From NCBI GenBank assembly GCA_036396895.1, contig DASWKB010000024.1, forward strand, positions 2,115 through 66,114: a stretch of 64,000 nucleotides of DNA. Reading direction: 5' to 3'. This stretch comes from a bacterium (GTDB lineage: Bacteria > Omnitrophota > Gorgyraeia > Aquiviventales > Aquiviventaceae). Positions 10,392 to 62,966 of the stretch are shown here, one piece after another. The notes under the pieces are model-generated. The model made no database searches and had not been told where the DNA came from. It saw only the letters and a program-made list of their open reading frames with translations. The translations under genes were made by a program, and so were the position numbers. Numbering within the stretch: the stretch's first letter is position 1; each line of letters begins with the position of its first letter.

Positions 10392-10423
10392 CACGTTACA
10401 CGATACACGTTACACGTTACGCG
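10392..10423. repeat. hepta-3 tandem array spanning the stop codon of the 10410 gene
   Basis: cacgtta-cacgata-cacgtta-cacgtta-cgcg. Confidence 0.85.
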
Positions 10424-11576
10424 GCGTGAGAAGCGGTTCGACGACCTGCTCGATGATATCGTTCGCCGCGTTCGGCCGGCCGGCGTCGCGCGCGCCCGTT
10501 CTGAGCTTCGCCATGAGCTCGGGCGAAGAGGCGCAGTGCCGCACGAACTCCGCGGCCGCCTCCGGGCCCAGCGCGATCACTCCCGCCCCCTGCCGCGCGA
10601 CGTACCGCGCATTCGATTCCTCCTGCCCAGGAATCGCGTGATAGAAGACCAGGGGCAGCTCGCACGCCAGCGCCTCGGCCACCGTCAGGCCACCCGCCTT
10701 GGCCACGGCCAGATCCGCCGTTCCCATCAAGTCCAGCATATTGTGCACGAATCCGAAGACCCTCGCGGGCATCGGCGCCGCCGCAGCCGCCGCCTCAAGG
10801 CGCGCCGTCGTGCGGGCGTCATCCCCGCAGACGACGATGAGCTGCAGCCGCCCTGGCACCATGGCCTCGAGTCTCAACAGCCGCTCGACGAGGTCTGCGA
10901 ACCGGCCGACGGTGGTGCCGCCGCTCGTGACCAGCACGGTCAGCCGGTCGTGCGCAAGACCGAGCGATTCCCTGAGCGCCCGCCGGCGCGTCTCGGTGAG
11001 CGGCGCCGCGGCGACCGTCGGAATCCCAAGCGCCGCCACGCGCTCGCGCGGCACGCCGAGCTCCACGCAACGGTCCGCCCCCGCCTGATTCGCCACGACC
11101 ACCGCGTCCGGACGGGCGCCGAGCCACAGCCGGTGCGGATGCCAGTCGGTGACGACGACCACGACCGGCGCCCGCAGCCGCCCCGCGGTCCGCGCAGCCC
11201 CCAAGAGGTCGGCCGGGAAAAAGTGCGTCAGGACCGCCACGTCCGGCTGCTCCGCGAGCAGGACGGCCGGCATGCGGTATCCGATCAGCCGGTTCCAGGC
11301 GCGCCGGAACGGCTGGATGCACCGGAACACCGCCGCCTGATCCAGCGCGCGATACGAAAACTTCCAGCACATCGGCAGCGCGCGCACCAGGAACAAGTAC
11401 AGGCGGGCGTACCCGCTCCGATACCAGCCCGGAGTCCATGCCAGGGCGTCCAGACAGCGAACGTCGGCGTCCGGCCAGCGCCGCCGCGCCGCGTCCGCCA
11501 GCGCTTCAGCCGCCCGGCGATGTCCGGCCCCGGCCGTCGCGTACGCAATCAGAATCCGAGGTCTTGATGAATCCAT
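10410..11576 (-). CDS. GT28-type glycosyltransferase (MGDG synthase / UgtP-like diacylglycerol glycosyltransferase)
   Basis: 388 aa. N-terminal ILIAYATAGAGHRRAAEAL and C-terminal AVAKAGGLTVAEALACELPLVFYHAIPGQEESNA are typical of the MGDG_synth plus Glyco_tran_28_C architecture. Confidence 0.8.
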   Translation of the reverse strand: MDSSRPRILIAYATAGAGHRRAAEALADAARRRWPDADVRCLDALAWTPGWYRSGYARLYLFLVRALPMCWKFSYRALDQAAVFRCIQPFRRAWNRLIGYRMPAVLLAEQPDVAVLTHFFPADLLGAARTAGRLRAPVVVVVTDWHPHRLWLGARPDAVVVANQAGADRCVELGVPRERVAALGIPTVAAAPLTETRRRALRESLGLAHDRLTVLVTSGGTTVGRFADLVERLLRLEAMVPGRLQLIVVCGDDARTTARLEAAAAAAPMPARVFGFVHNMLDLMGTADLAVAKAGGLTVAEALACELPLVFYHAIPGQEESNARYVARQGAGVIALGPEAAAEFVRHCASSPELMAKLRTGARDAGRPNAANDIIEQVVEPLLTPRNV

Positions 11577-11585
11577 CCGCCATCG

Positions 11586-11664
11586 GGAAGCTTGAAGCTA
11601 GAAGCTCGATGATGGAACGAGCGATCCGATCATTCCAGCTTCAAGCTTCCAGCCTCCAGCTTCC
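11586..11664. repeat. inverted hepta-2 arrays with a perfect 14-bp stem
   Basis: ggaagcttgaagct (11586-11599) is the exact reverse complement of agcttcaagcttcc (11637-11650). Further CCAGCNT units run to 11664. Confidence 0.8.
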
Positions 11665-11673
11665 GCCCAGAGG

Positions 11674-12384
11674 TCAATTCGGCTTCTCAAGCCGCCGGAA
11701 CGCGTCATAGTAGCCGCTCAGCTTGGCCCGCATCAGAAGGGGATGCGCGTCGCGGTCGGTCACTTTGATGCGGCGCAGCGCGTAGCGGTCCAGCGGGCCT
11801 TGCAAGGCGACGCGGTTGGTCGTGCACGCGCCGCGGTAGCCAGCCGATTTGGCGATCTCCTGAATTTTCGAGGAGTAGCCGCCGATCGGGTAGCTCAGCC
11901 AGTCGGCCGCCATCCCGATCCGCTCCTCGATCGCGCGCTTGGAGCCGGCCAGCTCTTCCTCGAGCCGGGACTCCTCCAGGATCGGCAGATACTGATGATG
12001 CATGGTGTGGCTGCCGATGGTCACGCCGCCGTTCGCCATCGCGCTCACCTGCTCCCAGCTCATGAACCCCGGCAGCCCGATCTCCCCGGAGGAGATGAAC
12101 ACGGTCGCGGGCAGATTGAAGCGCTTCAGAATCGGCCATGCGATGCTCCAGGTCTCCTCATAGCCGTCATCGAAGGTGATGACCGCGCTCCGGCGCGGCA
12201 TCGCGCCGTCGCGTTTCACGAGCTCGCCCAGCTCACCCAGCGGCAGAACCCGGAGGCCGCTGCGCGCGAGACTCCCCATCTGCTGTTCGAACGCCTCCGC
12301 AGAGACGGTCGGCACGTGATCCCCCCGCATCCCGCCGACCCTGTGATAGGCCAGGATCGGGACGTAGTACCTCCACTGGTTCAT
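11674..12384 (-). CDS. polysaccharide deacetylase (CE4 family)
   Basis: ITFDDGYEETWSIAWPILKRFNLPATVF and GSHTMHHQYL NodB-type motifs. GGGAGG Shine-Dalgarno 9 nt upstream of the ATG. Confidence 0.85.
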   Translation of the reverse strand: MNQWRYYVPILAYHRVGGMRGDHVPTVSAEAFEQQMGSLARSGLRVLPLGELGELVKRDGAMPRRSAVITFDDGYEETWSIAWPILKRFNLPATVFISSGEIGLPGFMSWEQVSAMANGGVTIGSHTMHHQYLPILEESRLEEELAGSKRAIEERIGMAADWLSYPIGGYSSKIQEIAKSAGYRGACTTNRVALQGPLDRYALRRIKVTDRDAHPLLMRAKLSGYYDAFRRLEKPN

Positions 12385-12429
12385 ATCGAGTCACCTCCCA
12401 TGCACGCTTCCCCTACCATCCGCCTGGTC

Positions 12430-12514
12430 GGAAGCTGGACGGTGGAGGCTGGAAGCTGGAACGGGTATCGTTGGGCTTCCACCTGAATGATCTAACGTCC
12501 AGCTTCGAGCTTCA
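12430..12514. repeat. hepta-2 arrays in inverted orientation
   Basis: ggaagctggacggtggaggctggaagctggaac ... gtccagcttcgagcttca. Confidence 0.75.
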
Positions 12515-13480
12515 GACCGATGAAGACGACAACGCCGCTTCCGCGCGGGCCAGGACGCGCGTCACATCGAGGGCCAATGCCGTGCCGAAGTGCTCGCGCG
12601 GCCCCCCGCGCAACCCCCGGACGAAGTACCTGAGCATTTCCTCCATCGGCAGCCGGCCCGGCTCCAGCGCGACGGGGCCGCGCGGCGCCGGAGCGCCGGA
12701 GCCGCGATCGTCGAACGCGAACGGACCGGCGCTCACGCGCTTCGCGTCCAACTCGTCGAACGCCACGAGGCGCCGAGAGGTAAAGACACTGAACGTCCGC
12801 CGGTCGAAGGGCGAGAGGCGGCCGATGTGGATCCACGCCTGCGCGCCGCCTGAAAACCCCAGCCGCATGCAGGCCTGTTCCGCCGCCTGCGCACCGCCCT
12901 CTGGCTTCAGGCCCAGCGCCTCGACGGACTCGGGCGGACGACCCATGAGGTCGAGACAGAGGCTCACGTCGTGCGCGCCCCAGTCCCAGACCGCGGGCGT
13001 CTCCGGGCGGAACGGTCCCAACCCCACGCCTTCGGAGAGGATCAGGCGCACCGGCGTGCCGTCGCGCCGCACCGACTCCCTGAGCGCGACATAGCCGGGG
13101 TTGAAGAGGTACGTGTGGTTGACCAGCACGGGCGCGCCCGAGGCGGTGACGCGGGCGTGCACGCGCTCGGCCGTCTCCACGTCGAGGCACAGCGGCTTCT
13201 CGACGATGCAGGGCATGCCGGCCTCCACGCAGGCCTCCACGATGTCCGCATGCGCGGGCGCAGGCGTCGCGATGATGAGCGCGTCGCAGCCGGCCGATAG
13301 CAGCGCCCGCCAGTCGCGCTCAACGCGCACGCCCTCGGGGAGCGCCGCGGCGTTCTCCGGCCGGCTTGTCGCCGCGTGCGTGAGGCGGGCGAACTCCGGC
13401 CCGACGGCGCGGAGGGTCTTCACGTAGACCTTCCCCCACCGCCCGACGCCGATCAAGCCGAACCGCACGGGGCCCGTCAT
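12512..13480 (-). CDS. Gfo/Idh/MocA-family NAD(P)-dependent sugar oxidoreductase
   Basis: VRFGLIGVGRWGKVY Rossmann N-terminus and CIVEKPL motif. Confidence 0.85.
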   Translation of the reverse strand: MTGPVRFGLIGVGRWGKVYVKTLRAVGPEFARLTHAATSRPENAAALPEGVRVERDWRALLSAGCDALIIATPAPAHADIVEACVEAGMPCIVEKPLCLDVETAERVHARVTASGAPVLVNHTYLFNPGYVALRESVRRDGTPVRLILSEGVGLGPFRPETPAVWDWGAHDVSLCLDLMGRPPESVEALGLKPEGGAQAAEQACMRLGFSGGAQAWIHIGRLSPFDRRTFSVFTSRRLVAFDELDAKRVSAGPFAFDDRGSGAPAPRGPVALEPGRLPMEEMLRYFVRGLRGGPREHFGTALALDVTRVLARAEAALSSSSV

Positions 13481-13483
13481 CGC

Positions 13484-14566
13484 TCACACGATCGGCGCGC
13501 CGCTGTAGCGCTGCTCGGCCCAGCGCATGAACCGCGTGAGCCCCTCCAGCAGCTCGACCCGGGGCCGGTAGCCGACCTGCCGGGCCGCCTTGGCGATATC
13601 GGGGCAGCGCCGCTGCGGCTCATCGGCCGGGTAGGCGTCGGGGTATTCGATGAGGCGCATCTCCAGCGGACGCCCCGCCACCTGCTCCATGAGTGTCGCA
13701 AGCTCCTTCATCGAAATCTCGGGCACCGGATTACCGATGTTGTAGGCCTGCCCGGAGATCCCGTCCAGCAGGACCTTGAGGAACCCCGTGATGGCGTCCG
13801 TGATGTAGCAGAAGGTCCTGGTCTGCGTGCCCTGCCCGTACACCGTGAGCGGCCGGCCCCCGATGATCCGGCTGGCGAAGTTCGGCAGCACGCGGTAGTC
13901 CGTCTCCTGCATGCCGGGCCCATACACGTTGAACGGACGCACGATCTTCGCGGGCACCCCGAAGCGTTCATGGAAGACCGCGCAGAGCGTTTCGCCCAGC
14001 CGCTTCGATTCGTCATAGCAGGCCCGCGGGCCCAGGCAGGACACGTTGCCCCGGTACGATTCGCCGGTCGGCACGTGGCGCGGGTCGGGGTCGCCGTAGA
14101 TCTCGCTCGAGCTGAAGAACAGGAACCCCTGCAGCGGATGCGCCCGGCCCAGCGTGAGCATGTTCCGCGTCCCGCTGATCGCCACCTCGAGCGTCTCCAG
14201 CGGGTACTTCCGATAATAATACGGGCTGGCGATCCCCGCCGCCTGAATCACGTAATCGGCGGGTTCCTCGAGCGCGAGGGGGGCGATGATGTCGTGCCGG
14301 ATGAAGCGGATGCCGTTCTGCACTTTCCAGTCCGCGCCGAGCTCTCCGCTCGTGATGAGGTTATCGTAGACGAGCACCCGGCAGGGTGTCTTGAGCACGC
14401 GGTCATTCAGGTGCGCGAAGACCGACGTGAAATACCGGCCGAGAAAACCCGCGCCTCCGCAGAGCACGATATGCCGGCCCGCGAAGCGCTGCGCGTCCTC
14501 GCCCAGCCCCTCGGCGATCTCCGCGATGTCCGACTCGAGGCAGTGCCCCCCCGCCTTCCCGCTCAT
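13484..14566 (-). CDS. SDR-family NDP-sugar dehydratase/decarboxylase (UXS/ArnA-C-like)
   Basis: VLCGGAGFLGRY, SSSEIYG, YDESKR. ATG at 14566 forms an ATGA overlap with the upstream stop. The Arg-rich 5' extension in the track (to 15130) is rejected. Confidence 0.85.
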   Translation of the reverse strand: MSGKAGGHCLESDIAEIAEGLGEDAQRFAGRHIVLCGGAGFLGRYFTSVFAHLNDRVLKTPCRVLVYDNLITSGELGADWKVQNGIRFIRHDIIAPLALEEPADYVIQAAGIASPYYYRKYPLETLEVAISGTRNMLTLGRAHPLQGFLFFSSSEIYGDPDPRHVPTGESYRGNVSCLGPRACYDESKRLGETLCAVFHERFGVPAKIVRPFNVYGPGMQETDYRVLPNFASRIIGGRPLTVYGQGTQTRTFCYITDAITGFLKVLLDGISGQAYNIGNPVPEISMKELATLMEQVAGRPLEMRLIEYPDAYPADEPQRRCPDIAKAARQVGYRPRVELLEGLTRFMRWAEQRYSGAPIV

Positions 14567-15858
14567 CGGGTCCGCTCCCGCGCGGGCGTGAGATCGCCCG
14601 CCGCGCCCCACAGGCGCACCTCCGGCAGCGGCACGATCATCTTCCCGCCCGCTTCGAGGAATCCCCGGTGCTGCTTCATGATCGGCTCCGCGAAGTTCCA
14701 GGCCAGGATGACCAGCACGTCCGGGCGCCGCGCGGGGTCCTGGAGCACCGACGCCGGCACGACCGGGATGTGCAGTCCCGGGCTGAACAGGCCCTGCTTC
14801 AAGGGACTCTCGTCCACGATGTACTCGAGCGTCTCCGCTCCGAGCCCGAACTGGTACATGAGCGTGGTCGCCTTCGCCGGCGCGCCGAACCCCGCGAAGC
14901 GGGCGCCGGAGGCCTTCAGCTCGGACAGGAGCGCCGTGAGCTCGGCGCCCCGCCGCTCGATGCGGCTCATCAGCTCGACGAACGCCTCGGAGCCGTGCAG
15001 GCCCATCCGCCGCTCGAGCGCCACCAGCTCCTCCACCCGGGGCGACGCCGCCGGGTGGGCGGCCGCGGGCCGCGCCACGCCCCGCAGGGACCCGCCGTGC
15101 GGATCGACCCGGAGCGCGTCCGTCAGGCACAATCCGTGGCGCGCGAAAAACCCGATGAGGGGCTTCACGCTGTGGTAGCTCAGGTGCTCGTGGTAGATCG
15201 TATCGAAGAGGGTCTTCTCGTAGACATCCACGAGATACGATACCTCGAAGACGAACGCCCCGTCAGGCGCGAGCAGGTCCGCGACGCCTTCCGCGATGCC
15301 GTGCAAATCGTCCGCGTGCGCGAAGACGTTGTTGGCCGCGATCAGCTTCGGCCGCCGGCCCTCCGCGGCAAGGCGCGACGCCAGAGCCTGATCGAAGAAC
15401 TCGGGCCGCGTCTCGATGCCCCTGGCCGCCGCCTGCTCCGCGATCGCCCGCGCCGGGTCCACGCCGAGCACCTTCAGGCCCGCCTCCTTGAAGAACCCGA
15501 GGAACGTCCCGTCGTTGCTGCCGATTTCAAGGACTTCATCGCCAGGCGCCAGCCCCAGGTCCCGGATGCAGGCGGCCGCGTAGCGGCGGAAATGCTCGAC
15601 GAAGACCGGCGAGGTGCCCGAGACGTAGACGTAGTTGCGGAACAAGAGCTCCGGATCCACGACGTCGAGCAGCTGCGCGTGGCTGCACTCGCGGCACAGC
15701 CGCACGTCCAGGGGAAAGCGCTCCTGCTCCCGTCCGCGCGCCGAGGCGTCCACGAACGCGTTCGCCGGCGGGGTCGCGGCGAGAGAGAGCACCGGCTCCA
15801 CTCGACGGGAGCCGCACAGGCGGCAGTCCGTCCGGCGCCGGCAGCGCGGGCCGCTCAT
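14563..15858 (-). CDS. NDP-hexose C-methyltransferase (TylCIII-like; zinc-ribbon, SAM-MT and C-methyltransferase C-terminal domains)
   Basis: CRLCGS...CRECSHAQL zinc pair, LEIGSNDG SAM motif, FDTIYHEHLSYHS. Confidence 0.8.
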   Translation of the reverse strand: MSGPRCRRRTDCRLCGSRRVEPVLSLAATPPANAFVDASARGREQERFPLDVRLCRECSHAQLLDVVDPELLFRNYVYVSGTSPVFVEHFRRYAAACIRDLGLAPGDEVLEIGSNDGTFLGFFKEAGLKVLGVDPARAIAEQAAARGIETRPEFFDQALASRLAAEGRRPKLIAANNVFAHADDLHGIAEGVADLLAPDGAFVFEVSYLVDVYEKTLFDTIYHEHLSYHSVKPLIGFFARHGLCLTDALRVDPHGGSLRGVARPAAAHPAASPRVEELVALERRMGLHGSEAFVELMSRIERRGAELTALLSELKASGARFAGFGAPAKATTLMYQFGLGAETLEYIVDESPLKQGLFSPGLHIPVVPASVLQDPARRPDVLVILAWNFAEPIMKQHRGFLEAGGKMIVPLPEVRLWGAAGDLTPARERTR

Positions 15859-16277
15859 GGGGCCGTGCCCTCCCCCGGCACGCCGGGGATGCGGACGCGC
15901 ACCGTGTCCTCCTCGTAGCGCTCCATCTGGCGGCTGTTGCGCGCGAACACCAGCATCACGGAGTCCTTCGTGAACACCATGGCGTGCTCATGCATCGGGG
16001 GCGTGAAGAAGACCTGCCCCGCCGAGATGCGCCAGCGCTGCGCCGGACCGGTTTCGCCGACCGGGCGCTGGAAGTAGTGCATCTCGCCCTCCTGGAGCCA
16101 GCAATAATGGTAATCCGTCTTGTGGTAATGCTGGGCGCGCACGGCGCCCGCGACCGACCGGATGACGACGGCGCTCGCAAAGACCGCTTCGATCAGGTTG
16201 AGGATTTCTCCCCGCTCGTCCACGAACGGCGGCCGGAGCGGCACCAATGGCTCATCGGCGTGCGGCATCGCCCACAC
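15855..16277 (-). CDS. cupin-fold sugar isomerase/epimerase-like protein
   Basis: 140 aa with cupin motifs RAQHYHK and PPMHEHAMVF. Overlaps both neighbours. Confidence 0.6.
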   Translation of the reverse strand: MWAMPHADEPLVPLRPPFVDERGEILNLIEAVFASAVVIRSVAGAVRAQHYHKTDYHYCWLQEGEMHYFQRPVGETGPAQRWRISAGQVFFTPPMHEHAMVFTKDSVMLVFARNSRQMERYEEDTVRVRIPGVPGEGTAP

Positions 16278-20692: not shown

Positions 20693-20825
20693 AACGTCTT
20701 TCGCAGTCCCTGAATCATCCTGACCAGCACCTCGGCATGCTCGTAGTGCTGCCGAAATTCCTGCTTTTCAAACTTGAATCCCATTATCCCTCGTCGCGTG
20801 CTCAAGCACCAACTTCGCGTGTCAG

Positions 20826-56351: not shown

Positions 56352-57112
56352 GAGCGTCCTTGCTCCTCGTCTCCGTACTCAAGCCCCAGCGACAGATACA
56401 CCCGCCGGCCGCCGACCTCGATGAACGCCCCGCGGAAGGGTGGAAAGGTCCGCGCCCGAAGGATATTGAGCAACTCGCCCGCGGCGTACTGCCGGGTGAC
56501 GTCAATGCGGTCCATCGCGTCCACGTCCCGGATTCGGTGCGTCGCGCCGATGCCTGCCGGCTGAGGCGTGCGAGGTGCCCGGCCGTCTCGGATGGCCGGC
56601 CACAGCTCCTGGAACAGCTCGACCGACGCCCGCTCGAGCCTCCGGTAAAGCGTTTCGCCGGTGTCCACGGGCTCCACGGCCACGACCCGCTGGGCGATCA
56701 GGTCTCCGGCATCGAGGCGATCATCGACGTAGTGCAGCGACACCCCCGCAGGAGTCCCCTCGATGATGCTCCAGACGTTCGGGTACGCCCCCCGGTTATG
56801 CGGCAACAGCGATGGATGCACATTGATGACGCCGGCGGGAAACCCGCGCAGGAGTTCCCGGCTCAGGACGTACCCGAACATGAGCGACACTCCCAAGTCG
56901 GGTTTGAGCGCGAGCACGGCGTCTCTCACCTCGGGCTGAGCAAGCCGGGACCCCTCGAAGACGGCCTCCCGGGGCACCCCGGCAGCCTTGAGGATCTCCC
57001 GGACGTGCCGCTGCCGCTCCGGCGGGTGAATGACCACGGCCGCGATGTCCTCTTCGCGCTCCCGCAGCCATCCGACAATCTGCCAGCCGACCCAGTTGTT
57101 CGCGAAGCACAC
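56348..57112 (-). CDS. Fmt-like sugar N-formyltransferase
   Basis: VINVHPSLLPHNRG and SLHYVDDRLDAGDLI. Start is a GTG at 57112. An in-frame ATT at 57121, 8 nt after a GGAGGG, would give xRIVCFANN. Confidence 0.8.
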   Translation of the reverse strand: MCFANNWVGWQIVGWLREREEDIAAVVIHPPERQRHVREILKAAGVPREAVFEGSRLAQPEVRDAVLALKPDLGVSLMFGYVLSRELLRGFPAGVINVHPSLLPHNRGAYPNVWSIIEGTPAGVSLHYVDDRLDAGDLIAQRVVAVEPVDTGETLYRRLERASVELFQELWPAIRDGRAPRTPQPAGIGATHRIRDVDAMDRIDVTRQYAAGELLNILRARTFPPFRGAFIEVGGRRVYLSLGLEYGDEEQGRS

Positions 57113-57136: not shown

Positions 57137-58183
57137 TTACCGCGAGCCGTTGGCCAGCTCGGCCGCCACGTGCGAGGCGCCTTCCCCCGACACGAGCGCC
57201 CGCCCTCGGGCCGACATCCCGCGCCGCCGCGCCGCATCCCCCAGAAGCGCGCCGGCCGCCCCGGCGACGGCCTCGCCGGTCAGGGTGTCCGCCAGGCCCA
57301 GGTTCAGCGCGACGCCGGCCGCCTCCAGCCGCTCCGCGATCGGCGCCTGGTTCTCCGCCAGCACGATGAGCGCGGCCGGGAGACCCATGAACGCGAGCTC
57401 CCACACGGTGCTGCCCGCGGCCGACACGGCGAGGTCCGCCCACGACATCAGCTCCGGCATCTTCGCCGGCTGCCGCTCGAGGCGCACGGCGGCCTTCGCG
57501 CCCTTGGAGAAGCGCTCAAGCTCCGCCGCGTGCGGATTGGCCGGACCGGCGACCGCCACCGTTTCGAGACGGCCCGGCAAGGCCTCGAGCGCTTCCAGAA
57601 CCCTCGCGGTGACGTTGTCCGGATCCCCGCCCCCCATCGTGACCAGCACGCGCGGCGTCCGGGCGGGGAACTCCCGCGTCCATTCGTTCCACTGAAGGAA
57701 CTCCCGCCGCAGCAGGGCGTATTGCGGCCCCAGCAGGAGGCGGGTGTCCGGCTCCCGGGCCGCGTACAGCGACTCCTCGGCGTGCGGGTTCTGGTTCAGT
57801 ACCACGTGCGCGTAGTAATGCTCCGCGTGGCGGCCGTCATCGATCACGAGCAGCCGGAACCGGCTGCGCCGGATCGCGAGCTGATAGGCGCTGCCGAAGC
57901 GGTAGCCGTCGGCCACGATCCAGGCCGCGCCTGCGCGCCGGGCCGCGCCGATGGTGAGCTTCGCGTCCTCCGGGTCGCCCGGTTCGGCGGGCATGGCCGC
58001 GACCGGAATCCCTTCGCGGATGAACCGGGTCCGGACCGCCTCCGGCACCGCGGCCGCCAGGAGCGCCGCCCCCCCGCCGTGGTGACGCCACGCCTGCGCG
58101 AGCGCCAGGCACCGCATCAGGTGCCCGGTGCCGATCGCGGCATTCCCGTCGGCGCGGATGAGCAGCGCGGGCGCCTTCGCCAT
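57137..58183 (-). CDS. pseG: UDP-2,4-diacetamido-2,4,6-trideoxy-beta-L-altropyranose hydrolase
   Basis: LLIRADGNAAIGTGHLMRCLALA N-terminus and C-terminal AAGSTVWELAFMGLPA. Start placed at MAKAPALL (58183). Confidence 0.8.
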   Translation of the reverse strand: MAKAPALLIRADGNAAIGTGHLMRCLALAQAWRHHGGGAALLAAAVPEAVRTRFIREGIPVAAMPAEPGDPEDAKLTIGAARRAGAAWIVADGYRFGSAYQLAIRRSRFRLLVIDDGRHAEHYYAHVVLNQNPHAEESLYAAREPDTRLLLGPQYALLRREFLQWNEWTREFPARTPRVLVTMGGGDPDNVTARVLEALEALPGRLETVAVAGPANPHAAELERFSKGAKAAVRLERQPAKMPELMSWADLAVSAAGSTVWELAFMGLPAALIVLAENQAPIAERLEAAGVALNLGLADTLTGEAVAGAAGALLGDAARRRGMSARGRALVSGEGASHVAAELANGSR

Positions 58184-58184: not shown

Positions 58185-58920
58185 CTAGACGGGCTTCTGC
58201 GCCACGTGGGCGTTGAGCCGGCTCCAGTCGGGATGCGCCGCCAGCACCTCCAGGACGTCCCGCCACTCGAACGTGTCGCGTCCGAAATGCCCGTAAATCC
58301 GCCGGAGGAGCTCCAAGTCATCGGCGGTGTCCACCGTCCAGCGGTGTCCCGAGTGATCGTCGCCCAGGCGGACCGGCACCAGCGTAAAGCGCTCCGGGTG
58401 ACGCCAGATGTAGGGCGTCACATGCTCCCGCCAGGCTGGATCGCGGTCCTCTTCCCAGGCGCGACGCAGCGCCCCCGCGGCGATGACTTCCGTGTCGAGC
58501 CCGCGCGGAAACGTCCGCGGCGGCAGGATGTTGCTCGCGTAATCGGCCGCGCCCGAGCGCCGGAACTCCCGCACCACCAGGTCGATCACGCCGGGGTCGA
58601 TCATCGGGCAGTCCGCCGTCACGCGCACGACGGCCGATGCCCGCAGCGCGAGGGCCGCCTGGTAATAGCGGTCCAGCACGTCCGCCTCGCTGCCGCGCAC
58701 GCACGTCCATCCGCGGGACGCGCACAGCGCCGCGACCGGGTCGTCCTGCGGCGCGAGCGTCGTCGCGACGCACACGCCGTCCACGCGCGCCGCCCGCGCG
58801 GTCCGCGCGACGACACGCGCCAGCATCGGCTCACCCGCGAGATCCTTCAGCACCTTGCCCGGCAGCCGCGCGCTTCCCATGCGCGCCTGAATCACGGCGA
58901 CGACGCGCATCCTCGCTCCC
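58185..58920 (-). CDS. SpsF/PseF-type nonulosonate cytidylyltransferase
   Basis: MRVVAVIQARMGSARLPGKVL and RVTADCPMIDP. The Arg-rich 5' extension in the track is rejected. Confidence 0.78.
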
Positions 58921-59554
58921 GCTTCCTGAGCAGAAACATCGCGTCCTCGAGCGGCTCCGTCCGGTACGGAAGCCGCTCCTCCCGCACGAGCTCCAGATCC
59001 GGGCAGGCCGCGCGGTACAGCGCCGCGTAGTCCGCCTTCCAGAGTAAATTCGCGCGGCCCCGGTAGGGCACGCCGGTCAGCTCCGGCGCGAAGTACTCCA
59101 GCCCCAGAATGCCGCGGCGCGAACAACGGTGGATCTCGCGCATCGCCGTCGCGAGATCCGCCGGAGCCAGATGGATCAGCACCCCGGAGGTGAACACCAG
59201 ATCGAAGGACCCGTCCCGGAACGGCAGGCCCGTTGCCGAGCCCTGAATCAGCGTGACACCCGGCAGGCGGCTCCGGGCGCGCGCGACCGCGTACGCCTGC
59301 AGCTCGATCCCGTAGAGCCGGGTGAATCCCTGCCGCCTGAGGCACCCCAGCTGAGTACCCACGTTCGTGCCGACTTCCAGGATCCGGGCCCCGCGGTCGA
59401 CGCCGTCCAGGAACCGCGCGTTGAGCGCGCTGCGCGTGACTCCGTAGCGCGACTCGTACATCGCGTCCAGCTCCTCAATCGTGAGGTCGTTCCGGTCGGT
59501 GTACGACCGGCCGAACGGGCCGCTCCACACGGCGGCCTGCGGCGTCTCAGGCAT
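58892..59554 (-). CDS. pseudaminic-acid-biosynthesis-associated methylase-like SAM methyltransferase
   Basis: ILEVGTNVGTQL and DLVFTSGVLIHL. Its position between pseC and the cytidylyltransferase matches the Pse-associated methylase family. Confidence 0.72.
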   Translation of the reverse strand: MPETPQAAVWSGPFGRSYTDRNDLTIEELDAMYESRYGVTRSALNARFLDGVDRGARILEVGTNVGTQLGCLRRQGFTRLYGIELQAYAVARARSRLPGVTLIQGSATGLPFRDGSFDLVFTSGVLIHLAPADLATAMREIHRCSRRGILGLEYFAPELTGVPYRGRANLLWKADYAALYRAACPDLELVREERLPYRTEPLEDAMFLLRKRERGCASSP

Positions 59555-60719
59555 CGCGGCTCCTCCCGCTCGGCGCCGGGCGCGGCGCGAGCCGTTCCAG
59601 CGCCGAGACGACGCGCCTGATGTCCCCATCCGTCATGCCCGGAAACATCGGCAGCGATACGATACGCTCGTAGGCGGCCTCCGCGGCCGGACACAAGCCG
59701 GGCCCCGTGCCCAGGCGCGTCCGGTACAACGGCTGCAGGTGCACCGGAATGTAGTGCACGTTCACGCCGATCCCCTCCTCATGAAGCCGCCGGAAGGCTT
59801 CCGCCCGGTCCAGGCCCAGCCGGTCCCGGTCGAGCCGGACGACGTACAGATGATACGCGTGCTCGACGCCGGGCCGGACCTCGAGCGGCGCGATCCCCTC
59901 AAGCGTCCCGCAGGCGCGGTCGTACGCCGCGGCGACGGCGCGCCGGCGGGCGAGACTCGCCTGGAGCTTCGCGAGCTGGCTCAAGCCCAGCGCGCACTGG
60001 AAGTCCGAGATCCGATAATTCAGGCCGGGCTCGGCGATCTCGTACACCCACGTGCGCGCCGCCAGGCGGCGGTGCGGATCCGCGTCGATGCCATGGTTGC
60101 GGAAGCGGCGCGCGCGGGCCGCCAGCGCCTCGTCGTCCGTGACCAGCATGCCCCCTTCCCCCGTCGTGATGTGCTTCGCGGGGTGGAAACTGAACGCCGT
60201 CGCGTCGGCGAGCGTCCCCACCGGGCGCGCCGCATCGGACGCGCCCAGCGCGTGGCAACCGTCCGCCAGCAGGCGGATGCCCCGCTCCGCCGTGACCGCC
60301 CGGAGCCGCGCGTAGTCGCACGGCTGACCCGCGTAATCGACGGCGATCACCGCTTTGGTCCTCGGCGTCGCCCGCGCCGCCACGCTCGCGGGGTCGATAA
60401 GCAGCGTCTTCGGGTCCACGTCCGCGAACACGGGACGGGCGCCCTGCAGCAGCACGACCGTGGCCGTCGAGGCGAACGTGATCGCCGGCACGATGACCTC
60501 GTCTTCCGGCCCGATCCCCAGCGCCGCCACGGCCGCGTGGAGCGCGGCAGTCCCGCTGGAGACCGCGACGCCGTGCCGCGCGCCGGTCCGCGCCGCCACC
60601 GCGCGCTCGAACCGCTCAATCAGCGGGCCGCCGGTCAGCCAGGCCGACCGCAGCGCCTCCGCCACCGCGGCGGCGTCCGCGTCATCGATCGAATGCCGCG
60701 TGTACGGCAACAGGTCCAT
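59547..60719 (-). CDS. pseC: UDP-4-amino-4,6-dideoxy-N-acetyl-beta-L-altrosamine transaminase
   Basis: [46 protein letters not shown]. The ATG at 60719 overlaps the pseB stop (TGATG). Confidence 0.88.
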   Translation of the reverse strand: MDLLPYTRHSIDDADAAAVAEALRSAWLTGGPLIERFERAVAARTGARHGVAVSSGTAALHAAVAALGIGPEDEVIVPAITFASTATVVLLQGARPVFADVDPKTLLIDPASVAARATPRTKAVIAVDYAGQPCDYARLRAVTAERGIRLLADGCHALGASDAARPVGTLADATAFSFHPAKHITTGEGGMLVTDDEALAARARRFRNHGIDADPHRRLAARTWVYEIAEPGLNYRISDFQCALGLSQLAKLQASLARRRAVAAAYDRACGTLEGIAPLEVRPGVEHAYHLYVVRLDRDRLGLDRAEAFRRLHEEGIGVNVHYIPVHLQPLYRTRLGTGPGLCPAAEAAYERIVSLPMFPGMTDGDIRRVVSALERLAPRPAPSGRSRDA

Positions 60720-61777
60720 CACGCGTCGCTCAGGCACGGCTCCGAGAGACCCAGCAGGTCCCGCAGCTCCTCGGGGGTCAGCCGCGCGGGATTCGTGTCG
60801 CTCGCGTACCGGAATCCCGGCGGCAGCGGACGCCCGTCCGTCCAGCGCTCGCTTCTCCACCACGCGTGCGCCGGGCGGATGACGTACATGTCGTCCAGCT
60901 CCACGGCCTGCCGCGCCTCGTCCTCCGAGACCAGGACTTCGTGGATCTTTTCCCCGGGCCGGATCCCGATTTCCTCGATGCGGCAGTCCGGCGCCAGCGC
61001 TTTGCACAGATCAAGAATGCTCATGCAGGGGATCTTCGGCACGAAGATCTCCCCGCCGTGCATCGACGTCAGGCAGCGGATGACGAAGCGGACGCCCTGG
61101 TCGAGCGTCAGCCAGAAGCGCGTCATGCGCGGGTCCGTCACCGTCACCGTGCCGCCGGCCCGCTGGGCGAGAAACAGCGGGACGACGCTGCCGCGGCTGC
61201 CGACGACGTTGCCGTACCGGGCGCACGCGAAGCGCGTCCCGCCGGCGCCGGCGTAGGCGTTGCCCTGCACGAAGAGCTTTTCGGCGCACAGCTTCGTCGC
61301 GCCGTAGAGGTTGATGGGGTTCACCGCCTTGTCGGTGCTCACCGCCAGGACCCGCTTGACGCCGCAGTCGATCGCGGCGTCGATCACGTTCTTCGCCCCG
61401 ATAATGTTCGTCTGCACGGCCTCGAACGGGTTGTACTCGCACGCCGGCACCTGCTTGAGCGCCGCCGCGTGCACCACGAGGTCCACCCCGTGCATCGCCC
61501 TCCGGAGCCGATCAAGATCGCGCACGTCGCCGATGAAGTAGCGCACCGGCGATCCGGGGCCGTCGGGCACGCGCTGGCGCATCTCGTGCTGCTTGAGCTC
61601 GTCCCGGCTGAAGATGATCAGCTTCTTGGGGCGCGCGGAGGCCAGCACCGCCTCCGTGAACTTCTGCCCGAACGATCCCGTGCCGCCCGTGACGAGGATC
61701 GTCGATCCGTCCAACGACAAGGATTCGCGCATTGTCTCCGTCCCTCCCGGCGCCTGAGGCCCTCGCCGGGCGCTCAT
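60719..61777 (-). CDS. pseB: UDP-N-acetylglucosamine 4,6-dehydratase (inverting)
   Basis: [36 protein letters not shown]. Start at 61777 (ATGA overlap) or 61732. Confidence 0.9.
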
Positions 61778-62712
61778 GTCCGCTCCAGTTGCGTGCGAAA
61801 CCACGCGATCGTCTTGGTCAGCCCCTCCGCGAGGGCGGTCTTCGGCTGCCAGCCGAGCACCCGCGACGCGGCGCCGATATCGGGGCAGCGCTGTTTGGGG
61901 TCGTCCTGCGGCAGCGGCCGCGATTCGATGCGGCTGGGGCTCTTCGTCATGCGGATGATCTCCTCCGCGAGCTGCCGCACCGTGTACTCCCCTGGGTTGC
62001 CGATGTTCATCGGCTCGTCGTAGTCGGAGTGCATCAGCCGCACGATCCCTTCGATGAGATCGTCCACGAAGCAGAACGAGCGGGTCTGGCTGCCGTCCCC
62101 GAACACCGTCACCGCCTCGCCGCGCAGCGCCTGGGTGATGAACGCCGGGATCGCCCGCCCATCGTGCATTCTCATTCTCGGCCCGTAGGTGTTGAAGATC
62201 CGGACAATGCGCGTATCCACGCCGTGGCTGCGGTGATACGCCATCGTGAGCGCCTCGGCGAAGCGCTTCGCCTCGTCGTAGACCCCGCGAGGGCCGACGG
62301 GGTTCACGTGCCCCCAGTAGGACTCCGGCTGCGGGTGGACCTGGGGATCGCCGTAGACTTCCGAGGTGGACGCCAGGAGGAACTTCGCGCCCTTGGCCTT
62401 CGCCATGCCGAGCGTGTTGTGGGTGCCCAGCGCGCCGACCTTGAGCGTCGGGATCGGGTGCTTGAGGTAATCGATGGGACTCGCCGGCGAGGCGAAATGC
62501 AGGATGAAGTCGATGGAGCCGTCCGGCGTGTACGGGCGGCTGACGTCATGGACGACGTGCGTGAAGCGCGTCTGTCCCAGGAGGGCGGCGATGTTGTCCG
62601 GGTTGGCCGTGATCAGGTTGTCCACGCAGATGATCTCGTGGCCGTCACGATGCAATCGCTCGCACAGGTGCGAGCCGAGGAACCCGGCTCCGCCGGTAAT
62701 GAGCATCCGCAT
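61774..62712 (-). CDS. UDP-glucuronate decarboxylase-like SDR (UXS family)
   Basis: [35 protein letters not shown]. Confidence 0.9.
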
Positions 62713-62966
62713 CAGGTGGCCTCCAGGAGTGGCATGGCCGGCTGCACGGCCGGCTTGGGATCGGGGGCCCGCTTCAACAGGAAGATTCCCCGGTGCTTGT
62801 GCTGACGCCGCCGGATGAACCCCTTGCGCTCAAGGGCGGTCAAGCGGTCGATGGCTGACTTGTAGGAGACGATGCGGCAGCCGGCCTGGACTTCCCGGAT
62901 CAGCGGAGCCCGGCTGTGCTCGCGCACGTAGTCCTCGATAAATATCAGGACACTGCGCTGTTTCAT
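62712..62966 (-). CDS. stand-alone LexA-N-terminal-type winged-helix DNA-binding protein
   Basis: 84 aa. [45 protein letters not shown] parallels the LexA DNA-binding domain. No S24 peptidase domain. Its stop overlaps the start of the next gene. Confidence 0.6.

Follow-up and report, generated by a model that had tools for sequence, protein, structure and literature searches.

A probable mosaic of cell-surface glycan pathways in a 52-kb locus of an uncultured Omnitrophota bacterium

Gene content and packing of the locus

The window, a stretch of 64,000 nucleotides from a contig assigned to the Omnitrophota, contains at 10410-62966 a run of 46 consecutive minus-strand genes (Table 1), and the GC3 frame plot and ORF analysis that delimited them showed no plus-strand coding signal within this interval. 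The coding density is 0.981, with an intergenic total of only 1001 nt. Overlaps of 4 nt (ATGA/GTGA) were found at 22 of the 45 junctions, a 1-nt overlap at one, between the LexA-type gene and its neighbour, and overlaps of 8-38 nt at eight others, giving 31 overlapping junctions; the rest are small gaps. With a rough chance rate of ~0.17 assumed per junction, 22 or more four-nucleotide overlaps correspond to P ~8e-7, and the same overlaps are present in independent public gene calls for identical DNA. Both the gene number and the frequent 1- and 4-nt overlaps agree with a first-pass annotation of this DNA, which had counted about 45 genes. Such tight packing suggests translational coupling inside sub-operons.

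Every one of the 55 window genes (472-64000) lies on the minus strand, the flanking housekeeping genes included, as do 10 of the next 12 genes further downstream in an overlapping metagenome contig; the GC skew on the plus strand is negative throughout. The one-strand layout is best taken as a regional strand bias and not as the mark of a single operon, and co-directionality is no argument for one unit because the run continues through unrelated housekeeping genes.

Table 1. Features of the locus in window coordinates; percentages are identities of orthologues, and L010 and L011 are Omnitrophota-like contigs
Feature	Position	Strand	Evidence
Promoter-like site TTGCTA-16-TATAGT	63043..63070	-	consensus match only
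LexA-N-terminal winged-helix protein, 84 aa	62712..62966	-	Pfam LexA_DNA_bind E 7e-15
SDR_d, NAD-dependent sugar epimerase/dehydratase	61774..62712	-	Pfam Epimerase, GDP_Man_Dehyd; NCBIfam below cut-off only
PseB, UDP-GlcNAc 4,6-dehydratase (inverting)	60719..61777	-	TIGR03589, 482 bits (cut-off 408)
PseC aminotransferase	59547..60722	-	TIGR03588, 427 bits (cut-off 423.5); Pfam DegT E 2e-120
Pseudaminic-acid-associated methyltransferase	58892..59554	-	TIGR03587, 171 bits (cut-off 112)
CMP-sugar cytidylyltransferase	58185..58910	-	Pfam CTP_transf_3 E 3e-27
PseG, UDP-sugar hydrolase	57137..58183	-	TIGR03590, 215 bits (cut-off 154)
PseJ-like sugar N-formyltransferase	56348..57112	-	Pfam Formyl_trans_N, N_formyltrans_C
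PseI, pseudaminic acid synthase	55245..56351	-	TIGR03586, 458 bits (cut-off 340)
Uncharacterised soluble protein, 548 aa, predicted GT-B-like fold	53602..55248	-	AF2 pLDDT 75
Fused TMD-NBD ABC exporter, HepA/MsbA/PglK type	51750..53609	-	Pfam ABC_membrane, ABC_tran
AsnB-like synthetase-domain protein	49930..51753	-	Pfam Asn_synthase only, E 2e-14
AsnB-family glutamine-dependent amidotransferase	48083..49933	-	Pfam GATase_6/7, Asn_synthase; TIGR01536, 295 bits (cut-off 267)
Zn-ribbon, SAM-methyltransferase, APH-type kinase protein (MT-kinase)	46066..48120	-	Pfam Methyltransf_11, APH, Trm112p
Uncharacterised membrane protein, 391 aa	44894..46069	-	at least 4 hydrophobic segments (hydropathy)
Bifunctional GT2 (polyprenyl-phosphate-sugar-synthase-like) + GT4	42966..44897	-	Pfam Glycos_transf_2, Glycos_transf_1; NCBIfam AglJ/ArnC-like, below cut-off
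Methyltransferase MT6	42329..42988	-	Pfam Methyltransf_11; 48% in L007
GT4_b glycosyltransferase	41187..42332	-	Pfam Glycos_transf_1 E 6e-40
Gap, 164 nt	41023..41186	-	ACGTGTC and GGGAC-type heptamer arrays
Methyltransferase MT5	40075..41022	-	Pfam Methyltransf_11
GT4 with C-terminal extension, weakly polysaccharide-deacetylase-like	37847..40078	-	Pfam GT4 domains
Methyltransferase MT4	37056..37850	-	Pfam Methyltransf_11 E 6e-21
Multi-pass GT-C-type (PMT_2/ArnT-like) glycosyltransferase	35635..37059	-	Pfam PMT_2, 27.3 bits (cut-off 26.1); seven hydrophobic segments
Methyltransferase MT3	34701..35642	-	Pfam Methyltransf_23/11
AsnB_1, AsnB-family amidotransferase	32778..34700	-	Pfam Asn_synthase E 1e-99; TIGR01536, 471 bits (cut-off 267)
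GT4_a glycosyltransferase, first gene of conserved backbone	31513..32781	-	Pfam; 49% in L010 and L011, same position
SDR_c, sugar epimerase/dehydratase	30527..31516	-	Pfam; 82% / 78% in L010 / L011
WecA/MraY-family polyprenyl-phosphate sugar-1-phosphate transferase fusion, 606 aa	28672..30492	-	Pfam Glycos_transf_4, CoA_binding_3
Wzy_C-family membrane protein (O-antigen ligase / O-oligosaccharyltransferase type)	27440..28675	-	Pfam Wzy_C, 62 bits (cut-off 31.7)
GT9 (heptosyltransferase-family)	26460..27443	-	Pfam Glyco_transf_9 E 4e-35
GT9 (heptosyltransferase-family)	25335..26447	-	Pfam E 6e-29
Gap, 132 nt	25203..25334	-	ACGCGTA-type heptamer arrays
DesV/QdtB-like sugar 3-aminotransferase (DegT)	24027..25202	-	phmmer vs PDB: 2oga E 1e-107, QdtB 3frk E 1e-83
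QdtC-like short left-handed beta-helix N-acetyltransferase	23548..23880	-	Pfam Hexapep; PDB QdtC 3fs8 E 9e-11
Conserved small protein, 154 aa	23087..23551	-	37-42% in L010 and L011 at this position; Pfam and NCBIfam without match
Glyco_trans_1_2-family glycosyltransferase	22102..23010	-	Pfam E 1e-25; 53-57% in L010 and L011
SDR_b, epimerase/dehydratase with internal insertion	20866..22047	-	Pfam; 66-72% in L010 and L011
Gap, 173 nt	20693..20865	-	GTCCACA heptamer array
GT2_c	19529..20692	-	Pfam; 62-68%
GT2_b	18765..19550	-	Pfam; 62-63%
Methyltransferase MT2	18013..18768	-	Pfam Methyltransf_11 E 2e-18
GT2_a	17177..18016	-	Pfam
Methyltransferase MT1	16252..17142	-	Pfam Methyltransf_23/11; 296 aa in public call
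Small cupin-like protein	15855..16268	-	Pfam Cupin_2, 21.9 bits, below cut-off
NDP-hexose 3-C-methyltransferase, TylC3/TcaB9 family	14563..15858	-	Pfam Methyltransf_13, Methyltransf_14
SDR_a, sugar epimerase/dehydratase/reductase	13484..14566	-	Pfam Epimerase E 4e-43; NCBIfam below cut-off
GFO/IDH/MocA oxidoreductase	12512..13480	-	Pfam; PDB 3c1a E 2e-49 (3c1a itself uncharacterised)
Gap, 127 nt	12385..12511	-	GGAAGCT/AGCTTCC heptamer arrays
Polysaccharide deacetylase (CE4)	11674..12384	-	Pfam Polysacc_deac_1 E 5e-28; 58% at L011 end
Gap, 97 nt	11577..11673	-	inverted GGAAGCT heptamer arrays, long hairpin
GT28 / MGDG-synthase-like glycolipid glycosyltransferase	10410..11576	-	Pfam MGDG_synth, Glyco_tran_28_C

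Rare-sugar and assembly functions

The LexA-type protein opening the locus lacks the peptidase domain, has the same 84 aa in public assemblies, and is a candidate regulator. PseB, PseC, PseG and PseI exceed their NCBIfam equivalog cut-offs, and the nonulosonic acid synthesis proposed earlier is specifically that of pseudaminic acid (Pse). The cytidylyltransferase, starting at ATG 58910 in the public call (241 aa) or at GTG 58895, gave no NCBIfam match to a PseF equivalog, only KdsB-like matches below cut-off, and would fill the PseF role. A phmmer search of the PDB matched the N-formyltransferase to Rv3404c (E 5e-29) and PseJ (6ci2, E 4e-28); PseJ works in making Pse5Ac7Fo (PMC11040635). As judged from these sequence assignments, the pathway is complete in the locus, with the PseJ-like enzyme replacing PseH.

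Neither Pfam nor NCBIfam matched the 548-aa protein, even at E<=5, and its weak Foldseek matches were all GT-B (BshA, UrdGT2, TarL/TagF, MurG, KpsC). The motifs FDHGG and KPHPEG are conserved in the family, whose profile finds 1857 representative clusters; a few members are fused to a formyltransferase or GNAT domain, and its genes adjoin NeuB/PseI genes in other contigs. It is a candidate nonulosonate (Pse) transferase.

The 3-C-methyltransferase matched TylC3 (4rv9, E 6e-101) and TcaB9 (E 3e-69) in the PDB over its full length, which bears out the sugar C-methylation of a C-methyl deoxysugar module suggested before. What had been taken for a diamino-sugar module fits better with a QdtB/DesV-like 3-aminotransferase and a QdtC-like N-acetyltransferase (110 aa, start taken from the public call), a pair that looks like one leading to a 3-acetamido-3,6-dideoxyhexose. 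The cupin-like protein, for which the PDB search gave no informative match, is possibly a sugar isomerase or epimerase. HMM searches across the locus found some 15 domains of glycosyltransferases and nine of methyltransferases, the latter in agreement with the heavy methylation potential claimed for it. Of two presumed deacetylases the CE4 enzyme is clear, but the second, the C-terminal extension of a GT4 protein, reached only 21.7 bits with Polysacc_deac_1 (cut-off 23.1) and had no PDB match.

The HMM annotation that had been recommended, run with Pfam and NCBIfam, left most functional calls standing, among them the two GT9 enzymes, the ligase-like Wzy_C protein, the WecA-type PNPT and the glycolipid synthase, the last as a GT28/MGDG-synthase-like enzyme. 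For GT9, WecA, the ABC exporter and GT28 the assignment reaches no further than the family, all NCBIfam matches lying below the equivalog cut-offs: heptosyltransferase matches for GT9, diglucosyl-DAG synthase for GT28 (150 bits, cut-off 500), and HepA (363 bits), MsbA (335) and PglK (168) for the exporter, which starts at 53609 or, in the public call, at 53477 (575 aa). GT28, whose gene comes last among the glycan genes, is only a putative member of the locus. The family assignment of the Wzy_C protein fits WaaL, PglL-type protein O-oligosaccharyltransferases or polymerases alike and cannot separate them.

The ABC-exporter-dependent export first proposed needs a change, the exporter being a fused half-transporter and not Wzm/Wzt. 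Wzx, Wzy, Wzz and Wzm/Wzt were all missing from the window, and the Wzx (Polysacc_synt), ABC2_membrane and Wzz families had no Pfam match among its 55 scanned proteins. In the AsnB-like synthetase-domain protein, with orthologues in L003, L004 and L007 (42-48% identity), Pfam detected no glutaminase domain. The 391-aa membrane protein, without Pfam or NCBIfam match, has a 44% homologue in L004. The MT-kinase (AF2 pLDDT 87) carries GxGxG, HGDxxxxN and DW motifs invariant across 15 homologues, and its best Foldseek match was WbdD (4azs, E 2.5e-10); the domain architecture of the suggested WbdD-like terminator is thereby upheld, but the 13% identity, the TM-score of 0.2-0.3 and the lack of a phmmer match to WbdD speak against a closer likeness.

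Synteny and repeat-filled gaps

Comparison with relatives, likewise recommended, was made with contigs elsewhere (among them L003, L004 and L007 to L011) over +/-10 kb only. A backbone (SDR, WecA fusion, Wzy_C, GT9, GT9 through GT2, GT2, deacetylase) keeps its gene order in Omnitrophota-like contigs; identity is 43-82% to L010 and L011, where the Wzy_C gene adjoins the WecA fusion as well; it spans GT4_a through the deacetylase, plus two window-specific insertions. The WecA-fusion architecture is common to 2417 homologues, the closest named ones from Ca. Omnitrophica MAGs. A second module (PseI/NeuB, ABC exporter, GT-B-like protein, AsnB', AsnB, MT-kinase, GT4, MT) was found in L007 (GC 0.39), L003, L004 and L008/9, unrelated contigs of 39-62% GC, and distant lineages have it without the backbone. 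As far as gene order tells, synteny shows this module to be horizontally distributed, separate from the lineage-conserved backbone. The combination of pathways, held to be unusual by the first-pass annotation, includes a backbone kept with the same order and packing in other contigs, and the locus is a mosaic of known pathway kinds on a shared backbone, its modules set apart by structured gaps, rather than one exceptional super-operon.

Besides the gaps in Table 1, gaps longer than 50 nt lie at 22048-22101 and 23881/23974-24026, and public start codons add 23011-23086 and possibly 53478-53601; the resulting 7-9 gaps with heptamer repeats correspond to the eight short repeat-filled ones described before. 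The window holds 22 tandem heptamer arrays, 18 of them within 3.8 kb of non-coding DNA; several form inverted pairs folding as long hairpins, and a GGAATGC array (22118-22152) is entered by the 3' end of the Glyco_trans_1_2 gene. The 97-nt gap folds with -53.4 kcal/mol (z = -5.9), matched by none of 200 shuffles. Two window gaps match positions that are heptamer-array gaps in L010 and L011; the L010 equivalent of the 173-nt gap has heptamer arrays too, but of different units, and the 132-nt gap is the edge of a DegT/acetyltransferase insertion relative to both contigs. These heptamer-hairpin gaps are likely sub-unit boundaries. The promoter-like site precedes the first gene, in a gap of higher AT content (62967-63289), and is the only intergenic one of two minus-strand sigma-70-like matches with at least 9 of 12 positions in 10000-64000. 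Promoter and terminator scans of the locus were near background, with no excess of terminator-like signals.

It is unlikely that the 52 kb form a single translationally coupled super-operon making one elaborate, heavily methylated glycan. The 7-9 gaps, of 50-170 nt, contain strongly structured repeats, and two coincide with heptamer-array gaps in relatives; the modules differ in phylogenetic distribution and in partners elsewhere, and the strand bias reaches into the housekeeping genes and does not argue for the one co-directional unit assumed earlier, even if the coding density of 98%, the 31 overlapping junctions, the single intergenic promoter-like match at the head and the missing terminator excess are in its favour.

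Proposed glycan assembly and known systems

The 46 genes probably make up a surface-glycan locus of mosaic structure in an uncultured, probably Omnitrophota-related diderm, several pathways being placed head-to-tail on the replication-leading strand. The WecA-type phosphotransferase would begin the glycan on undecaprenyl phosphate, and cytoplasmic GT2, GT4 and Glyco_trans_1_2 enzymes would lengthen it with ordinary sugars and rare ones made in situ. The latter may be Pse5Ac7Fo, by PseB-C-J-G-I(-F) with enzyme identities at equivalog level, a 3-C-methyl-6-deoxyhexose, for which the C-methyltransferase family is established, and a putative 3-acetamido-3,6-dideoxyhexose. SAM methyltransferases would put O- or N-methyl groups on residues, AsnB-type enzymes would amidate carboxyl groups, and the MT-kinase may cap or modify the chain in a WbdD-like manner. 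The lipid-linked product would cross the inner membrane via the fused MsbA/PglK/HepA-type ABC half-transporter, side residues may be added in the periplasm by the GT-C enzyme, and the Wzy_C protein would attach it to a lipid A-core in whose synthesis both GT9 enzymes take part. We infer this LPS linkage only from GT9 and Wzy_C, because the window contains no lipid A or Kdo genes.

The Wzy_C domain is common to WaaL and PglL/PilO enzymes, and together with the PNPT initiator, the fused ABC flippase and the Pse pathway, whose product is a typical protein-linked sugar, it could fit general protein O-glycosylation, a PglK-like ABC protein flipping a lipid-linked oligosaccharide that the Wzy_C protein transfers to pilin, S-layer or flagellin. 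This is quite improbable: two GT9 genes directly adjoin the Wzy_C gene, an arrangement kept in relatives, the Pfam scan of the window found no Maf, flagellin or pilin genes, and the many glycosyltransferases and the putative chain terminator suggest a polymer over a short oligosaccharide. That the Pse/ABC half makes a non-LPS capsule or exopolysaccharide, exported like the products of HepA (heterocyst envelope polysaccharide) or ChvA/NdvA (cyclic glucans) and merely adjacent to an LPS core locus, is very unlikely, since the HepA score, though the exporter's best NCBIfam match, lies far under its cut-off (363 against 725) and the Pfam scan of the window found no outer-membrane export parts (Wza/KpsD, Wzc/KpsE), even if the second module is seen without the backbone in distant lineages.

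The mosaic locus recalls the Omnitrophota polysaccharide cassettes with O-antigen ligase, heptosyltransferase II and LPS exporter, which have already been described as hypervariable. Compared with the standard Pse pathway, a PseJ-like formyltransferase occupies the place of PseH; the WecA fusion carries the N-terminal TM and CoA_binding_3 half of WbaP-type transferases. The MT-kinase has the domain order of WbdD but lacks its coiled-coil ruler, and, unlike Wzm/Wzt, the exporter here is a fused half-transporter of the HepA/MsbA/PglK type.

Conserved backbone, ligase-like protein and inserted sugar blocks

The 46 minus-strand genes constitute a large mosaic O-antigen/LPS-type glycan locus of known type. 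Its most interesting remainder is a conserved module of pseudaminic acid (Pse), ABC exporter, GT-B-like, AsnB and methyltransferase-kinase (MT-kinase) genes with two uncharacterised families, together with the gaps that contain heptamer hairpins. All 55 ORFs of the window were scanned against Pfam and most of them against NCBIfam, and a protein-by-protein comparison with contigs fetched via homologues showed two independent conserved units, the backbone and a second module. The backbone has the order GT4_a, SDR_c, WecA fusion, Wzy_C, GT9, GT9, a small unknown protein, Glyco_trans_1_2, SDR_b, GT2_c, GT2_b and, further on, a deacetylase. In the related contigs L010 (GC 0.70) and L011 (GC 0.64) it was found in identical order, on a single strand and with equally tight overlaps, the identity being 78-82% for SDR_c and 66-72% for SDR_b. 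Compared with these, the window contains two insertions, a DegT/acetyltransferase pair and a C-methyl block, both bounded by heptamer gaps. The downstream half as a whole includes an SDR, the WecA-type fusion, the Wzy_C protein, two GT9 and Glyco_trans_1_2, then another SDR, three GT2, a CE4 deacetylase and a GT28/MGDG-synthase-like enzyme, while the middle of the locus carries GT4, GT2+GT4 and GT-C (PMT_2) enzymes, five further methyltransferases and a third AsnB. No informative matches were obtained for a 154-aa protein, a 391-aa membrane protein and the C-terminal half of a GT4-'deacetylase'.

Coordinates of the features in the window
Feature	Position	Strand	Remarks
Heptamer arrays outside the locus	95-405; 9392-9424		
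GalT/HIT-family paralogues	472-2551		two, in tandem
Composite repeat	2552-2827; 4252-4567; 6105-7282		6105-7282 is 1.2 kb, non-coding
Glycan locus	10410-62966	minus	46 genes
Array-bearing gaps (examples)	11577-11673; 12385-12511; 20827-20859; 22076-22152; 23944-23979; 25324-25356; 41150-41174; 63100-63296		
Deacetylase	11674-12384	minus	end of backbone
Cupin	15855-16268	minus	C-methyl block
GT2_b	18765-19550	minus	backbone
GT2_c	19529-20692	minus	backbone
SDR_b|GT2_c junction	20693-20865		array also in relatives
SDR_b	20866-22047	minus	backbone
Glyco_trans_1_2|SDR_b junction	22048-22160		array also in relatives
WecA fusion	28672-30492	minus	backbone
SDR_c	30527-31516	minus	backbone
GT4_a	31513-32781	minus	start of backbone
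MT-kinase	46066-48120	minus	684 aa
AsnB paralogue	49930-51753	minus	glutaminase-less
GT-B-like protein	53602-55248	minus	548 aa
LexA-N protein	62712-62966	minus	84 aa, first gene
Promoter-like site	63070-63043	minus	

The initiator contains a Glycos_transf_4 domain and scored 96 bits with the NCBIfam WecA model, below its cut-off. This WecA/MraY-family transferase is fused at the C-terminus to transmembrane segments and CoA_binding_3, the N-terminal half of the WbaP/WcaJ-type phosphoglycosyltransferases, and carries no WbaP/WcaJ catalytic domain. The fusion was considered as an unusual feature and rejected as such, the same architecture being present in 2417 homologues; it is common and seemingly little discussed. 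Its nearest named relatives are 'Candidatus Omnitrophica bacterium' MAGs (56-63% identity), and L011 is itself a Candidatus Omnitrophica MAG (GCA_016209275.1). The genes of the locus point to an Omnitrophota-related organism.

The Wzy_C domain occurs in a multi-pass membrane protein, as seen from hydropathy, which adjoins the GT9 genes, and this adjacency is kept in L010 and L011. The Pfam Wzy_C family spans lipid A-core ligation, protein O-glycosylation and polymerisation. Its breadth would accommodate a protein O-glycosylation system, and the conserved GT9 neighbours are more consistent with transfer to a core. Both GT9 proteins exceed the Pfam Glyco_transf_9 cut-off; with the NCBIfam heptosyltransferase models they scored 110-117 against cut-offs of 135-170, all below, and the WaaC/WaaF/WaaQ equivalog level was not reached. 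A non-LPS capsule is a further rival reading, considered unlikely.

The two inserted blocks predict two of the rare sugars of the glycan. The 3-aminotransferase matched DesV (E 1e-107) and QdtB (E 1e-83), and a short LbH N-acetyltransferase (110-141 aa) matched QdtC (E 9e-11). On these PDB sequence matches the block, earlier taken for a diamino-sugar module, is better read as a DesV/QdtB-like and QdtC-like pair, predicted to form a 3-acetamido-3,6-dideoxyhexose. A QdtA/FdtA 3,4-ketoisomerase was sought in the sole cupin, whose Pfam score was below the cut-off and which gave no informative PDB match. The C-methyl block consists of MT, GT2, MT, cupin, C-methyltransferase, SDR and GFO genes. The C-methyltransferase combines Methyltransf_13 (Zn-binding), a SAM domain and Methyltransf_14, and matched TylC3 (4rv9) over residues 6-413 with E 6e-101; it has the features of an NDP-hexose 3-C-methyltransferase (TylC3/TcaB9) and is predicted to act as one.

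Pseudaminic acid module and its two uncharacterised families

The second module has the order PseI/NeuB, ABC exporter, 548-aa protein, glutaminase-less AsnB paralogue, AsnB, MT-kinase, GT4 and MT; in the window itself PseI is followed downstream by the 548-aa protein, the ABC_membrane+ABC_tran exporter, the glutaminase-less AsnB paralogue, the full AsnB and the 684-aa MT-kinase. The module is nearly intact in contig L007 (GC 0.39) and partial in L003, L004 and L008/L009, and its occurrence across contigs of GC 0.39-0.62 indicates horizontal spread.

PseB, PseC, PseG and PseI all exceeded their NCBIfam equivalog cut-offs. No GNAT protein that could represent PseH was detected by Pfam in the Pse module, its position being held by a sugar N-formyltransferase that resembles PseJ (E 4e-28) and Rv3404c (E 5e-29). 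PseJ is the enzyme leading to Pse5Ac7Fo (PMC11040635), and the replacement of PseH by a formyltransferase matches this known variant. The locus differs from the Pse5Ac7Fo pathway in three respects. The cytidylyltransferase, with its CTP_transf_3 domain, matched no PseF model and in NCBIfam gave only KdsB-like matches below cut-off; a 'Pse-associated methylase', which exceeded the cut-off of its hypothetical-equivalog model, is added; and the next gene encodes no known Pse transferase (KpsS1, Maf) but the uncharacterised GT-B-like protein.

Even with the threshold relaxed to E<=5, Pfam gave no match for this 548-aa protein. Its model (pLDDT 75) showed weak structural matches only, all of them to GT-B enzymes (BshA, UrdGT2, TarL/TagF, MurG and KpsC). 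The family appeared extremely rare from seven word-indexed matches, a view rejected when the profile search gave 1857 representative clusters, 707 of them with E<=1e-30; the family is thus of considerable size, though undescribed. In the 42 members scanned, the core region carried no Pfam family, and extra domains were a formyltransferase in one and GNAT in another. The family has the conserved motifs FDHGG and KPHPEG, and in other contigs its members adjoin NeuB/PseI and cytidylyltransferase genes. Because of these neighbours and the KPHPEG motif, a CMP-nonulosonate transferase is the most likely role, with a TagF-like phosphotransferase as the alternative.

The MT-kinase is composed of a zinc ribbon, a SAM-methyltransferase (Pfam Methyltransf_11) and an APH-type kinase, and the SAM-binding and kinase motifs (GxGxG, HGDxxxxN, DW) are invariant in its family. 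A phmmer search against the PDB returned generic methyltransferases only and no WbdD. The AlphaFold model, built with 15 homologues, had a pLDDT of 87, and its top Foldseek match was WbdD (4azs), with both domains aligned (E 2.5e-10, 13% identity, TM 0.2-0.29). Unlike WbdD, the protein has an additional N-terminal zinc ribbon and the AF2 model contains no long C-terminal coiled-coil ruler, ending in the kinase C-lobe helices at residue 683. Of the proposal of a WbdD-like terminator, the combination of methyltransferase and kinase with intact motifs in one polypeptide is retained, and sequence homology to WbdD and the ruler are not. The enzyme plausibly acts like WbdD, phosphorylating and/or methylating the chain end. 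The word-indexed search gave 18 relatives only; among GTDB species representatives there was no close relative, the one weak match being to the methyltransferase domain in a Rhodospirillaceae MAG (L001). In a 137-kb contig of JGI 3300048587 (L005:7811-12010) two tandem MT-kinase paralogues lie beside TagF-like (Glyphos_transf) genes, a Kdo/RIO-like kinase, NeuB and a sulfotransferase, which shows that in other lineages the family also associates with teichoic-acid-like polymer genes.

A bolder reading, which we consider doubtful, takes the upstream half for an undescribed horizontally mobile module, in which the 548-aa family would represent a new class of nonulosonic-acid transferases and the ruler-less MT-kinase would terminate or mark the chain for a non-Wzm/Wzt exporter. 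If true, bacteria would have a fourth way of exporting and terminating polysaccharides.

Gene packing, strand orientation and repeats

The GC content of the window is 68-69%, and the third-position GC frame plot showed minus-strand coding almost unbroken from 472 to 64000, the sole longer non-coding stretch being the 1.2-kb repeat region. The first-pass description of a packed one-strand locus with repeat-filled gaps was confirmed. The 45 junctions between the 46 genes comprise 22 4-nt ATGA/GTGA overlaps, one 1-nt overlap and eight longer ones, and intergenic DNA amounts to 1001 nt only (coding density 0.981). The number of gaps above 50 nt is 7-9, depending on the start codons chosen for SDR_b, Glyco_trans_1_2, the hexapeptide protein and the ABC exporter, which are ambiguous. 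TGA is the stop in 39 of the 46 genes. With the chance of such an overlap put at roughly 0.17 for each junction, P is ~8e-7 for at least 22 4-nt overlaps among 45. The DNA is identical to an NCBI third-party-annotated MAG contig of 66,321 bp with the locus tags VGB20_*. Public gene calls of this DNA contain identical overlaps, and pieces of the window are also present in the ENA assembly ERZ27256989 and the JGI metagenome 3300033417.

The orientation is not peculiar to the locus. All 55 genes of the window and 10 of the 12 next downstream genes lie on one strand, including the flanking genes for two GalT-like proteins, fmt, def, an MFS transporter, PriA, UDG and an upstream SDR, and the plus-strand GC skew is consistently negative (-0.03 to -0.18). 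The one-strand layout is probably a regional property of the chromosome, a leading-strand bias. A single super-operon, a less likely reading, could appeal to the many overlaps; since the flanking and downstream genes share the strand and the skew is negative, co-directionality, earlier taken as the sign of one unit, is no evidence for one transcription unit. The two tandem GalT/HIT-family paralogues (galactose-1-phosphate uridylyltransferase-like, DUF4921/DUF4931), located downstream of fmt/def, may be nucleotide-sugar phosphorylases or transferases tied to the glycan locus, though housekeeping genes intervene.

The locus opens with a gene for the LexA N-terminal winged-helix domain alone, without the S24 peptidase; this gene shares 1 nt with the next SDR gene. 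Upstream of it, in the gap with the highest AT content, lies the best promoter-like match, the sole such match within a gap. In the scans for sigma-70 promoters and intrinsic terminators the counts were close to those of shuffled controls, and this site was the one noteworthy. The 84-aa protein is a possible candidate for a dedicated regulator.

Nearly every intergenic gap of the window contains tandem 7-nt arrays of 3-6 copies, with the units GGAAGCT, GGAATKC, ACGTGWA, GGGGACA and GTCCACA. There are 22 arrays, 18 of which are inside non-coding DNA (3.8 kb, 6% of the window), and those of ACGTGWA are placed at, or just past, stop codons. Many form inverted pairs and long hairpins with folding z down to -5.9. 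As these hairpins lack a U-tract they were rejected as intrinsic terminators, and at Rfam gathering thresholds no RNA family was found in the window, repeat-rich gaps included. Arrays also occur at the equivalent junctions in L010 (17463-17541) and L011 (16317-16352), between SDR_b and GT2_c and between Glyco_trans_1_2 and SDR_b, with wholly different units (ACCAGCA and CGGTCGC in L010, TCAATCA in L011). The position of the arrays in related loci is conserved and their sequence is not. The array hairpins might be a regulatory or insulating element specific to the lineage. Intergenic heptamers have precedents in other phyla: Beggiatoaceae and cyanobacteria carry TAACTGA repeats (PMC4679880), and Xanthomonas and Nostoc have SSRs with heptameric units (PMC4692102). 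Another repeat of the window, composite and about 150 nt long, has the core GTGCCGCACGAACGATCACGCGTGCATCTGTGCATGAGTGCAGAGCCTTCGTTGTTGACGATTCA, is present in both orientations and is bordered by the heptamer arrays described above. It looks like a MITE-like or REP-like element; assembly ERZ27256989 breaks this region into separate contigs.

Proposed export route and comparison with known systems

From the enzyme families found we infer the following order of steps. Initiation on undecaprenyl phosphate by the WecA-type enzyme would be followed by cytoplasmic chain growth by soluble glycosyltransferases, using locally made Pse5Ac7Fo, 3-C-methyl deoxyhexose and 3-acetamido-3,6-dideoxyhexose. The chain would be decorated by methyltransferases and AsnB-type amidotransferases, modified or terminated by the MT-kinase and exported in lipid-linked form via the fused ABC transporter. 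A GT-C enzyme may add periplasmic decoration, and the Wzy_C protein would ligate the glycan to a core made by the GT9 enzymes.

The only exporter of the window, located within the glycan locus, is a fused ABC_membrane+ABC_tran half-transporter (TMD-NBD, type IV). Its NCBIfam scores were all below cut-off: HepA 363 (cut-off 725), MsbA 335 (602) and PglK 168 (1000). It is not of the Wzm/Wzt type; no ABC2_membrane match was found among the 55 scanned proteins, nor were Wzx (Polysacc_synt) and Wzz, and the sole Wzy-related match was the Wzy_C ligase-like protein. The overall interpretation of the first-pass annotation is supported in part; corrections concern the type of exporter, membership of the WbdD family, the amino-sugar module and how much co-directionality counts.

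Omnitrophota are thought to depend on cell-cell contact. For an uncultured bacterium that is probably related to this group, the locus provides a fairly complete parts list of the surface glycan, whose predicted chemistry comprises Pse5Ac7Fo, 3-C-methyl deoxyhexose and 3-acetamido-3,6-dideoxyhexose along with amidated acids and numerous methyl groups. Two uncharacterised proteins, both with good genomic context, offer practical leads: the GT-B-like protein adjoining PseI as a candidate pseudaminyltransferase and the zinc-ribbon MT-kinase as a candidate chain terminator.

The locus shares with the WbdD-terminated, ABC-dependent O-polysaccharide of the E. coli O9a type a WecA-family initiator without Wzx/Wzy/Wzz, many cytoplasmic glycosyltransferases, a Wzy_C ligase-like protein and a protein with a SAM-methyltransferase followed by an APH-type kinase, whose best structural match is WbdD; it differs in its exporter, a type-IV-fold half-transporter and not Wzm/Wzt. 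The MT-kinase itself departs from WbdD in sequence to the point that phmmer detects no similarity. In Wzk/PglK-type pathways (Helicobacter pylori O-antigen, Campylobacter N-glycan) a PNPT starts the full glycan, which is assembled in the cytoplasm on a lipid carrier, moved by a fused MsbA-like ABC flippase and transferred by a Wzy_C-type enzyme or an oligosaccharyltransferase. The PNPT initiator, fused MsbA-like ABC protein and Wzy_C-type enzyme of the locus agree with this scheme, whereas its exporter remains far below the PglK cut-off, and the locus also has a putative terminator, AsnB-type enzymes, three in number, and a much larger set of modification enzymes. The Leptospira rfb region is likewise a very large one-strand O-antigen locus, in which tens of glycan genes run in one direction and include modules for nonulosonic acids and rare sugars; it belongs to another lineage and uses a Wzx/Wzy-type pathway, unlike the window.

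The closest parallel is found in the lineage itself. A preprint describes as hypervariable an O-antigen/polysaccharide cassette of about 26 kb in an Omnitrophota genome, whose genes include those for an O-antigen ligase, for heptosyltransferase II and for an LPS exporter (bioRxiv 10.64898/2026.05.20.726742). This cassette and the syntenic relatives indicate that large, tightly packed glycan loci are normal for the lineage, and the view of the locus as an exceptional 'supercluster' was abandoned, as its size results from stacked known module types and its one-strand layout follows the local genome. In common with the cassette and with L010 and L011, the window has a gene of the O-antigen ligase type, genes of the heptosyltransferase family, an exporter and many glycosyltransferases; unlike them, it adds the C-methyl-sugar block and the DegT/acetyltransferase pair inside the backbone and bears the Pse/ABC/MT-kinase half upstream.
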